Shown one piece after another: positions 3,845 through 5,051 of a stretch of DNA of 64,000 bases. The stretch is taken from positions 192,487 to 256,486 of the forward strand of contig JAUHZK010000002.1 in the NCBI GenBank assembly GCA_030425645.1, given 5' to 3'. The position numbers and the translations under genes are program-made. The DNA comes from Gammaproteobacteria bacterium (GTDB taxonomy: Bacteria; Pseudomonadota; Gammaproteobacteria; JAPPPA01). Positions within the stretch are counted from its first letter, which is position 1. The number at the start of each line of letters is the position of its first letter. The notes under the pieces are model-generated. The model did not search any database. It was not told where the DNA came from and was given only the letters and a program-made list of their open reading frames with translations.

Positions 3845-4438
3845 CTACATATTGGCCGCTTCAGCACAGGCTTCTTTAGAGCCGCGCTTACAGCCGAGCT
3901 GATACAGGCGCAAGGCTGCGGCCTTGCTCCTTTCCACCCCATGACTACCAAAACGATGACGCTCAGCCAGCCGCAAACAGGCTTGCGTGTAGTCACCCAA
4001 AGCACACTCAACAAACAACTCCTCGGCTTCCTGCTTCCAGGCCTCCGCCGTTTTCTCGGCTTCTAAGCGGCGCTTCTCTACCTCAGCCTCGGGCTTAATC
4101 TGTTCGAAAAGACGTTGCGCGCTACGGTAACTAGCACCACGATCATCTGTGAGGGAAAAATACTCCTGCAGAAGATCATAAGCAGGCACCAATTTCTGAG
4201 CGCGAGCGGCCAACTTGGCCTCGATAAGCACAAGCGCTGGCGGCATCACCACATCCAAATCTCGGAATCTCTGAACATGTTCACTTGCCTGTTCAAAATC
4301 CCCACTACGCAGATCCTTAGCAATCTGCTGCTGCAAAAATTTTACATCTGCTCGCAAGTCTGAATTCGCCAACACTGCGGTGCCAAACAGGACAGCCACC
4401 AACAGCCCTAAGGCGCGCAATTTATTTACCGCAAACAC
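3845..4438 (-). CDS. Hypothetical secreted protein with a Sel1-like or TPR-like C-terminal segment
   Basis: N-terminal signal peptide (LLVAVLFGTAVLA), coiled-coil segment, and a C-terminal AAALRLYQLGCKRGSKEAC Sel1-like motif. Last gene of a three-gene minus-strand cluster. Confidence 0.5.
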   Translation of the reverse strand: MFAVNKLRALGLLVAVLFGTAVLANSDLRADVKFLQQQIAKDLRSGDFEQASEHVQRFRDLDVVMPPALVLIEAKLAARAQKLVPAYDLLQEYFSLTDDRGASYRSAQRLFEQIKPEAEVEKRRLEAEKTAEAWKQEAEELFVECALGDYTQACLRLAERHRFGSHGVERSKAAALRLYQLGCKRGSKEACAEAANM

Positions 4439-5051
4439 TCATATGCTCCATCTCTTCTGGACTCAAGTAAAAGCTACAGCTGCAGTTAACACCTTTACCA
4501 CTATCCAACTGTTGCAAACAATTGTTGCGCCTGCGCTGACGTTCTGCCTTTCGCTTGTTTTCGAGTTTTTGTTGCTCGCTTAGTTGCTGCGATTCTTGTT
4601 CCTTAAAGCCTTGCTGCTGTTGCTGTTGCTGTTGCTGTTGCTGTTGCTGTTGCTGTTGCTGTTCAGCATTTTCTGACCGCCTCAGGACATAATCTAGCTC
4701 ACGTAGAAATTCACGATCCAACTCAGTTGAAGCACTTTTTTCTGAGGCATTCTTGTCGTCGTCAGGCGGTATCGCGACCACCAACTTGCCGCCCTGATCG
4801 ACCCACCGAGGCACTTCGGCTTGTGGCTTTTTGCCCGCTTCACTCAATTGCCGCTGTTCGCGCTGCCACTGCTCAATATCGCGTTCCCAGTCGTAGATAG
4901 AGTCGCCGCTAAAAAAATTCTTACCCGCAGTCCAAGCCTTTTCTAGCCAACTGGGTTCCTCGGCAACCGCAAGCCCCAGCCATGCGGCAAACAAGAAAAA
5001 TCCTAGGTAACGAAAAAGGCTTGTAATCAATGACAACATTTTTACTCCCAA
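4422..5051 (-). CDS. Membrane-anchored DUF4124-like protein with an internal poly-glutamine tract
   Basis: N-terminal transmembrane or signal segment, RWVDQGGKLV motif resembling DUF4124, a run of 17 Gln encoded by (CAACAG)n, and a basic C-terminus. The start could be at MLSL (5042 or 5039). Confidence 0.5.
   Translation of the reverse strand: MGVKMLSLITSLFRYLGFFLFAAWLGLAVAEEPSWLEKAWTAGKNFFSGDSIYDWERDIEQWQREQRQLSEAGKKPQAEVPRWVDQGGKLVVAIPPDDDKNASEKSASTELDREFLRELDYVLRRSENAEQQQQQQQQQQQQQQQQQGFKEQESQQLSEQQKLENKRKAERQRRRNNCLQQLDSGKGVNCSCSFYLSPEEMEHMSVCGK
4611..4670. repeat. Hexanucleotide microsatellite (CTGTTG), about 9 units, in-frame inside the CDS. It encodes poly-Gln on the minus strand.
   Basis: Direct reading of ctgttgctgttgctgttg... 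at 4617-4664 with degenerate flanking copies. Confidence 0.95.

Follow-up and report, generated by a model that had tools for sequence, protein, structure and literature searches.

In the current analysis we have characterised a perfect hexanucleotide repeat that lies in frame within a small gene of a gammaproteobacterium, encodes 17 consecutive glutamines and occurs with different copy numbers in public assemblies. The window analysed is a stretch of 64,000 nucleotides from the contig JAUHZK010000002.1 (assembly GCA_030425645.1, positions 192,487 to 256,486), and all coordinates given below refer to it. The original prediction, made by reading the DNA, had proposed an in-frame hexanucleotide microsatellite encoding 17 glutamines in a membrane-anchored protein, and both the repeat and its coding capacity are confirmed by Tandem Repeats Finder and by translation. 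The features of the gene and of its downstream neighbour are as follows.

4422-5039, minus strand: gene of the 205-residue poly-glutamine (poly-Q) orphan protein, stop codon included (open reading frame (ORF) list; the gene calls of the Joint Genome Institute (JGI) share the start)
5045-5049, minus strand: Shine-Dalgarno sequence GGGAG, 5 nt upstream of the ATG at 5039 (sequence reading)
4962-5039, minus strand: putative signal peptide (cleavage between AVA and EE) or N-terminal anchor, residues 1-26, MLSLITSLFRYLGFFLFAAWLGLAVA (hydrophobicity; helix 2-26 in the AlphaFold2 (AF2) model)
4611-4661, minus strand: tract of 17 glutamines, residues 127-143, a polymorphic site of 45, 51 or 57 nt in other assemblies (translation, contig alignment)
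4615-4663, minus strand: perfect hexanucleotide array, (CAGCAA)n on the coding strand (Tandem Repeats Finder: period 6, 8.2 copies, score 98)
4503-4724, minus strand: single continuous alpha-helix predicted at residues 106-179 (74 residues), rich in E, Q, K and R (AF2, predicted local distance difference test (pLDDT) of the block 77-94)
4425-4520, minus strand: C-terminal tail with four cysteines, C174, C186, C188 and C203 (translation; AF2 confidence low to moderate)
3845-4438, minus strand: predicted exported protein of 197 residues, similar to tetratricopeptide repeat (TPR) and Sel1 proteins, with a GTG start (ORF list; GGAG 7 nt upstream)

The repeat tract

The array at 4615-4663 has 100% matches and zero indels. 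It is made up of ~8 units and ends at 4663, somewhat short of the nine or so units over 4611-4670 that had been counted in the original prediction. A regular-expression scan for perfect repeats with units of 1-9 nt finds a stretch of 48-49 nt at this site and 12 nt for the runner-up in the 64 kb, the array exceeding every other perfect repeat of the window ~4-fold in length. Read on the minus strand the tract is GAA-(CAGCAA)7-CAG-CAG-CAA-GGC, which gives 17 glutamine codons in a row (Q17). The longest homopolymer run in the proteins of the host genes is not above five residues.

By our calculation the chance match of 43 bases beyond the first unit has a probability of ~4^-43 per site, and the strict alternation of 15 glutamine codons has a probability of ~6e-5 when the poly-Q tract is taken as given. 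A chance origin of the array is thus ruled out at the level of base matches as well as that of codon alternation. The host genes use CAG and CAA in a ratio of 49:51; from this usage and the strict alternation of the two codons it follows that the tract was born by duplication at the DNA level and not by selection for glutamine. An extra copy of CAGCAA (Q151-Q152) is situated 24 nt downstream of the tract, within the Q/E-rich helix, and suggests that the array may have grown from an ordinary QQ codon pair.

The ORF list contains no frame spanning the tract on the opposite strand. No stable DNA hairpin is found on either strand of the tract (z-scores of 0.5 and 0.03 against shuffled sequence). 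Hairpin-driven instability of the CAG/CTG type was considered and dropped, as neither strand folds better than shuffled sequence does.

Length alleles across assemblies

Contigs spanning the tract were retrieved from public assemblies through the flanking genes, because the poly-Q protein matched only its own truncated copy and its neighbour only identical copies. They represent three alleles.

Q15: 45 nt, 203 residues (L024/L030; JGI 3300041045 Ga0452138_00031 and ~12-13 further loci returned as 'similar places')
Q17: 51 nt, 205 residues (L026/L032: 3300041047 Ga0452142_00060 and 3300045055 Ga0494884_000092; the window)
Q19: 57 nt, 207 residues (L025/L031; 3300041046 Ga0452140_00049)

The Q17 protein is encoded exactly by 3 contigs, and the contig groupings suggest a tally of ~13-14 Q15 contigs, 3 Q17 and 1 Q19. 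Alignment with the window over 5.38 kb leaves the Q15 and Q19 contigs with one gap of 6 nt and 0 mismatches, and the Q17 contigs are identical to it over ~5.4 kb. The repeat count is therefore the sole difference over ~5.4 kb. The unit, whose length is divisible by 3, lies within the ORF, and none of the three alleles shifts the frame (203, 205 and 207 residues). The claim that slippage alters the poly-Q length with the frame kept is hence supported by Q15, Q17 and Q19 on otherwise identical contigs, and the comparison of repeat number across metagenome assemblies that had been proposed beforehand as its test did yield tracts of 45, 51 and 57 nt. The tract is a genuine in-frame slippage hotspot, of an already known sort. 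A search of a metagenome contig collection gave no match, the collection evidently being without these samples.

The same set of contigs carries a polymorphism in gyrA (146-2752, minus strand), in which codon 83 (2504-2506) changes from ACC to ATC, resulting in Thr83Ile. No other point difference is seen among 13 contigs, the comparison extending over as much as 4.6 kb. Ile83 is present in four independent assemblies (SRR32932195, SRR32932204, JGI 3300041046, which is the Q19 contig, and JGI 3300041060), and Thr83 in the window and the remaining contigs compared. Thr83Ile of GyrA is the classical quinolone-resistance substitution. The pattern suggests one clone sampled repeatedly, either selected by quinolones or with standing polymorphism; the repeat and one drug-target mutation account for every difference seen across many samples.

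The two Q17 contigs 3300041047 Ga0452142_00060 and 3300045055 Ga0494884_000092 are both 77,545 nt long and both end at window position 2711, within gyrA shortly after its start (2752) and ~200 nt from codon 83. Their equal length may reflect the same data assembled twice, or a reproducible break.

Contig breakpoints and probable mixtures of alleles

A JGI contig from 3300045056 (L027) stops 41 nt beyond the left flank, inside the tract, and two others, from 3300041072 (L033) and 3300041060 (L034), begin 47 nt ahead of the right flank. The lengths of 41 and 47 nt are exactly the prefix and suffix common to Q15 and any longer allele, whereas a mixture of Q17 and Q19 predicts 47 and 53. As these contigs break off where two alleles cease to be identical, an unresolved bubble due to mixed alleles is the most likely cause, and the three samples most likely hold Q15 together with longer alleles. 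The Logan contigs behave differently: all those with the downstream gene (8/8) start in the tract, 30-34 nt ahead of the right flank; a break 28 nt past the left flank is seen in one Logan contig. We attribute such breaks to the short k-mer used in assembly (~31 by assumption) and not to mixed alleles.

Another contig (L001/L029; JGI 3300041072 Ga0452152_00055) ends 10 nt ahead of the repeat, its last 15 bases corresponding to ~4680-4694. A T-to-G mismatch 10 bases from its end changes TAT to TAG and introduces a stop, giving rise to a protein of 116 residues (P0001); this stop is probably an assembly error at the contig end.

An exact look-up of the full-length poly-Q alleles Q13-Q21, with either start codon, in a collection of 15 billion proteins returned none. 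The same collection holds the 116-residue poly-Q fragment only, though contigs with Q15, Q17 and Q19 are indexed. Genes that are broken by repeats or of low complexity are probably under-represented in such protein catalogues, and as a practical warning the tract disrupts most short-read assemblies.

The poly-Q gene and its product

The ATG at 5039 is the likely start of the gene, giving 205 residues, because GGGAG is placed 5 nt upstream of it and the JGI calls have an identical start. The TTG at 5051, to which the gene had been extended in the original prediction, is less likely. JGI has called the gene in every contig that spans the tract, with a common ATG and lengths of 203, 205 and 207 residues. 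The frame of the poly-Q ORF scores highest of the six frames in codon-usage log-odds, both as a whole (0.20) and before (0.17) and after (0.16) the repeat, the values for 20 long host ORFs being 0.17-0.43. The G+C contents at the three codon positions (GC1/GC2/GC3) are.605/.361/.502 in the poly-Q ORF and follow the profile of the host (.609/.428/.538). No promoter is called in the gap of 65 nt upstream of the gene.

When residues 1-126 were searched exhaustively with phmmer against 1.84 billion representative proteins, only the truncated copy of the protein itself and one spurious entry (P0015) were identified. The latter, an internally repeated and junk-like sequence of 355 residues which matches a 36-residue stretch five times, was rejected. 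The whole protein has no homologue beyond its own truncated copy in a word-indexed set of 5.8 billion proteins. Searches of Pfam, NCBIfam, PADLOC and PHROGs with the proteins of the cassette formed by this gene and the one downstream, and of their neighbour, resulted in weak compositional matches to the charged, Q-rich helix; those to RNase E, TolA, AbiLii (E 0.009) and a phage tape-measure family (E 1.7e-4) were rejected as low-complexity matches. The gene is probably young or fast-evolving, and it has no detectable homologue.

The N-terminal membrane or signal segment noted in the original prediction is present as the sole hydrophobic segment of the protein (residues 1-26, Kyte-Doolittle maximum 2.22 at residue 12), and the AF2 model has a helix there. 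The cleavage site between AVA and EE is derived from the A-x-A rule, and we infer that the protein may be exported. A Trp-rich region is also present, and the motif RWVDQGGKLV is modelled as a beta-hairpin at residues 78-89 with low confidence. This motif had been described as similar to DUF4124 (PF13511). The likeness consists in a signal-like N-terminus followed by the short motif and then a charged helical region. The protein differs, however, in having no Pfam match (E<=1 for the whole protein, E<=10 for the excised region); the DUF4124 profile gave zero matches at E<=10 with residues 27-126 and with the 35-residue motif region, and no DUF4124-type relatives were among the results of the exhaustive phmmer search. 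The assignment is hence not retained.

The poly-Q tract forms the middle of the predicted helix 106-179. This helix is poor in hydrophobic residues and appears to resemble a single-helix spacer more than a canonical coiled coil. The AF2 model has a pLDDT of 77-94 in the helix, and its N-terminal region is poorly predicted. A Foldseek search of the model against the PDB returned nothing meaningful, as expected for a long helix.

The TPR/Sel1-like possible partner and the two-gene insert

The last 17 nt of the poly-Q gene are shared with the 197-residue ORF, which begins there with GTG. This overlap of start and stop, together with the Shine-Dalgarno sequence of the TPR gene itself, points to translational coupling of the two genes, which would be on one transcript. 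The 197-residue protein has an N-terminal hydrophobic segment and cysteine pairs of the type CX8C and CX7C. One repeat of the Sel1 family (PF08238) is matched at residues 152-187 with 23 bits (E=1.2e-4), under the Pfam cut-off of 30.7 bits. Its AF2 model has a pLDDT of 75.7 and a predicted template modelling score (pTM) of 0.61, with pLDDT of 88-97 over residues 30-130. Helical hairpins at residues 26-96 (pLDDT 88-97) form a stacked helix-turn-helix fold, and the best neighbours in the PDB according to Foldseek are the TPR proteins MamA, IpgC and designed CTPR (probability 0.96-0.99, MamA and IpgC at 0.99; E no better than 0.04-0.2). Identical copies are the only matches of this protein in the protein database. 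It could possibly be a binding partner of the poly-Q protein.

The two genes are situated in a segment with the following boundaries.

3833-5104, no strand assigned: lineage-specific two-gene insert of 1.27 kb, between tatD and a gene of 126 residues; relatives are without it
3035-3832, plus strand: tatD, flank of the insert
5105-5485, minus strand: conserved gene of 126 residues, flank of the insert and upstream of the poly-Q gene

In relatives at 87-89% and ~74-76% nucleotide identity, homology to the window ends at ~3828 and restarts at ~5104-5136. The flanking genes abut in these relatives, and convergent tatD is next to the 126-residue gene in L002-L011, L014 and L015. The cassette proteins have no match in the contigs of the relatives by tblastn. 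The insert equals its flanks in G+C content, has a host-like codon usage and shows no similarity to the rest of the window. At its edges the direct and inverted repeats are only short and at chance level, with no mobile-element signature or terminal repeats.

The 126-residue protein is acidic (net charge -14) with zero hydrophobic segments. It has 13 homologues, at 48-91% identity, and a genome-contig search with it identified one relative only, the metagenome-assembled genome SB9156_S5_bin_6 (79% identity), whose 'SB...' name may point to a sponge association of the relatives. The three-gene cluster of envelope proteins suggested in the original prediction is consequently to be revised: this neighbour is free of hydrophobic segments, and its conservation extends to relatives without the poly-Q and TPR genes, so that the unit is a two-gene cassette.

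Other cargo is encoded at the same site in L012 (6514-9033) and L013 (3242-5770), in which the 126-residue protein shares 79% identity. It consists of a Gly-rich exported protein of 149-152 residues, a protein of the MptA_B family and a GT2 glycosyltransferase. The differing cargo indicates that the junction downstream of the 126-residue gene is a small variable hotspot.

Interpretation of the length variation

The mechanism that we favour is slipped-strand mispairing at (CAGCAA)n in a 6-nt register, which would add or remove two glutamines per event; the simple slipped-strand model is preferred because neither strand forms a stable hairpin. The tract itself probably arose by duplication of a CAGCAA hexamer encoding QQ. 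In the protein, the helix 106-179 would join the small N-terminal region that follows the export or anchor segment to the tail with four cysteines, and each slippage step may alter this helical spacer by ~0.3 nm and turn its ends by ~200 degrees, going by standard helix dimensions. Since the unit is a multiple of three, no toggling of expression is brought about, only a graded change in helix length and phase. The variation is thus quite probably a tolerated spacer polymorphism, driven by mutation and neutral or weakly selected, and a programmed switch is unlikely. An ON/OFF phase-variable locus was rejected in view of the 6-nt unit, the three alleles in frame and the absence of a promoter-like site at the tract.

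A number of points weigh against this interpretation. Neutrality of the tract variation is an assumption, and pairs of an exported protein with a TPR/Sel1 protein sometimes show selected length variation. The allele frequencies depend on how the look-up has grouped 'similar places', and the heterogeneity within samples rests on contig breakpoints and not on counts of spanning reads. The poly-Q copies are identical outside the repeat and hence lend no support to translation through the ratio of non-synonymous to synonymous substitutions (dN/dS). The AF2 model of the poly-Q protein is a single-sequence model with a mean pLDDT of 70 and a pTM of 0.33, poor in the N-terminal region.

It is conceivable, at rather low probability, that the locus is an adaptive contingency locus acting on protein geometry, where selection keeps the slippage and the Q-length tunes the spacer, its register or self-association, so that engagement of a host, phage, neighbouring cell or envelope target by the exported protein or its TPR partner is changed and different alleles win by condition. 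Such a locus would agree with alleles that vary from sample to sample and occur together in samples of one clone, with the export-type N-terminus, with the presence of a TPR/Sel1-like protein next to it and with the unusual variability reported for homorepeats of extracellular proteins (PMC8004648). The only other difference between samples, T83I in gyrA, is at a strongly selected site, and close populations already differ at the repeat. The lengths nevertheless differ by only 2-4 residues, well under the Q lengths of the aggregation type, a high mutation rate suffices for the data, and an orphan gene missing in sister lineages does not constitute a conserved adaptive system. More doubtful still is the specific proposal that selection maintains the tract as a 'length and register dial' of a recently formed module, made up of an exported poly-Q stalk and a TPR/Sel1-like protein, with slippage supplying the clone with variants that differ by two residues (~200 degrees of helical phase each). 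To a similarly slight degree we would credit that such a dial tunes interaction with a host or neighbouring cell and provides contingency through protein geometry and not expression, in a poly-Q protein of eukaryotic appearance from an uncultured gammaproteobacterium. A non-functional ORF, with the microsatellite in recently acquired or degenerate open DNA and its variation without protein consequence, would explain why no homologue is found among the 1.84 billion representative or 5.8 billion word-indexed proteins, why the codon score of 0.20 is near the bottom of the host range of 0.17-0.43 and why no promoter is called in the 65-nt upstream gap. It is improbable in view of 205 codons preceded by a Shine-Dalgarno sequence and ATG, the best score of six frames in both halves, the order GC1>GC3>GC2 typical of real genes, the canonical export-type N-terminus, the 17-nt overlap with a second ORF confidently folded as TPR-like, and the JGI gene call in every spanning contig.

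That assemblers have miscounted a low-complexity tract whose true sequence is invariant seems very improbable, even though 8/8 Logan contigs with the downstream gene start in the tract and several JGI contigs end there. The tract lengths differ only by exact multiples of 6, the flanks being flawless, the alleles recur in independent assemblies (Q17 on 3 contigs, Q15 in ~13), and the JGI breaks are at the exact bases where the alleles diverge and not at a fixed k-mer distance. Moreover, tracts of 45-57 nt are below the common Illumina read length (assumed), so that single reads should span them. We give almost no credence to a regulatory role, in which the tract would act as DNA or RNA on the TPR gene, through promoter spacing or mRNA structure, and not as poly-Q. 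The tract is indeed upstream of the TPR start at 4438, at a distance of 170-230 nt, and slippage is known to set promoter spacing in bacteria, e.g. in SabA. There is, however, no promoter-like site in or near the tract and no stable structure on either strand, and the overlap of the TPR start with the poly-Q stop, along with a separate Shine-Dalgarno sequence for the TPR gene, points to coupled translation.

Other features of the window

A giant ORF of 6293 residues (41319-60200, minus strand) contains tandem repeats of 108, 111 and 222 nt at 53438-53677 and 57829-58796 (Tandem Repeats Finder), and probably encodes a giant repeat adhesin. A tandem glycine riboswitch (17413-17639, minus strand) upstream of the glycine-cleavage genes, a 6S RNA gene (22507-22696, plus strand) and one tRNA (27725-27798, plus strand) are ordinary.

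Comparison with known systems

Bacteria show a depletion of short tandem repeats, which are nevertheless hotspots of indels (PMC12699852), and long perfect microsatellites as well as long poly-Q runs are uncommon in these organisms (PMC12699852, PMC8004648). The present repeat was predicted from the DNA and then found varying among clonal populations. It offers a ready marker for strain tracking of this organism and, if the length variants are selected, a tractable model for a homopolymer length that tunes a bacterial surface or periplasmic protein.

The poly-Q tracts of eukaryotes, with their mixed CAG and CAA codons, have in common with the present tract a long Q run that is continuous with a predicted alpha-helix and a length polymorphism caused by slippage. 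The tract described here is bacterial and in a presumably exported protein, has strict CAG-CAA alternation and forms no DNA hairpin, whereas those of eukaryotes are CAG runs with occasional CAA interruptions; the resemblance is one of form and not of homology. Lengths of Q15-19 are far under those associated with disease or aggregation.

Simple-sequence contingency loci, responsible for phase variation, have been described in Neisseria, Haemophilus, Helicobacter and Mycoplasma (PMC4085013, PMC2715451). Like them, the tract is a perfect microsatellite in the gene of a presumably exported protein and is heterogeneous in clonal populations. Their units of 1, 2, 4, 5 or 7 nt, or their promoter spacers, lead to ON/OFF expression, in contrast to the graded in-frame change seen here.

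Most of the in-frame variable-number tandem repeats described have longer units that encode peptide modules, e.g. the 18-nt Ser-Asp repeats. Such repeats are known from surface and secreted genes (Zhou, Aertsen & Michiels 2014, FEMS Microbiol Rev 38:119, as cited in PMC12699852), and polymorphic repeats have been catalogued in PSSRdb (PMC3013739). The present locus is similar to those of surface and secreted proteins in having a unit length divisible by 3 within an ORF, slippage-driven copy-number differences between near-identical genomes, a putative export signal, and a change in protein length and not in expression. It differs in its 6-nt unit, in encoding a pure homopolymer and in its orphan host protein. 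The mechanism is not new, and the locus represents a clean natural case of graded, non-frameshifting slippage in what is probably an exported protein.

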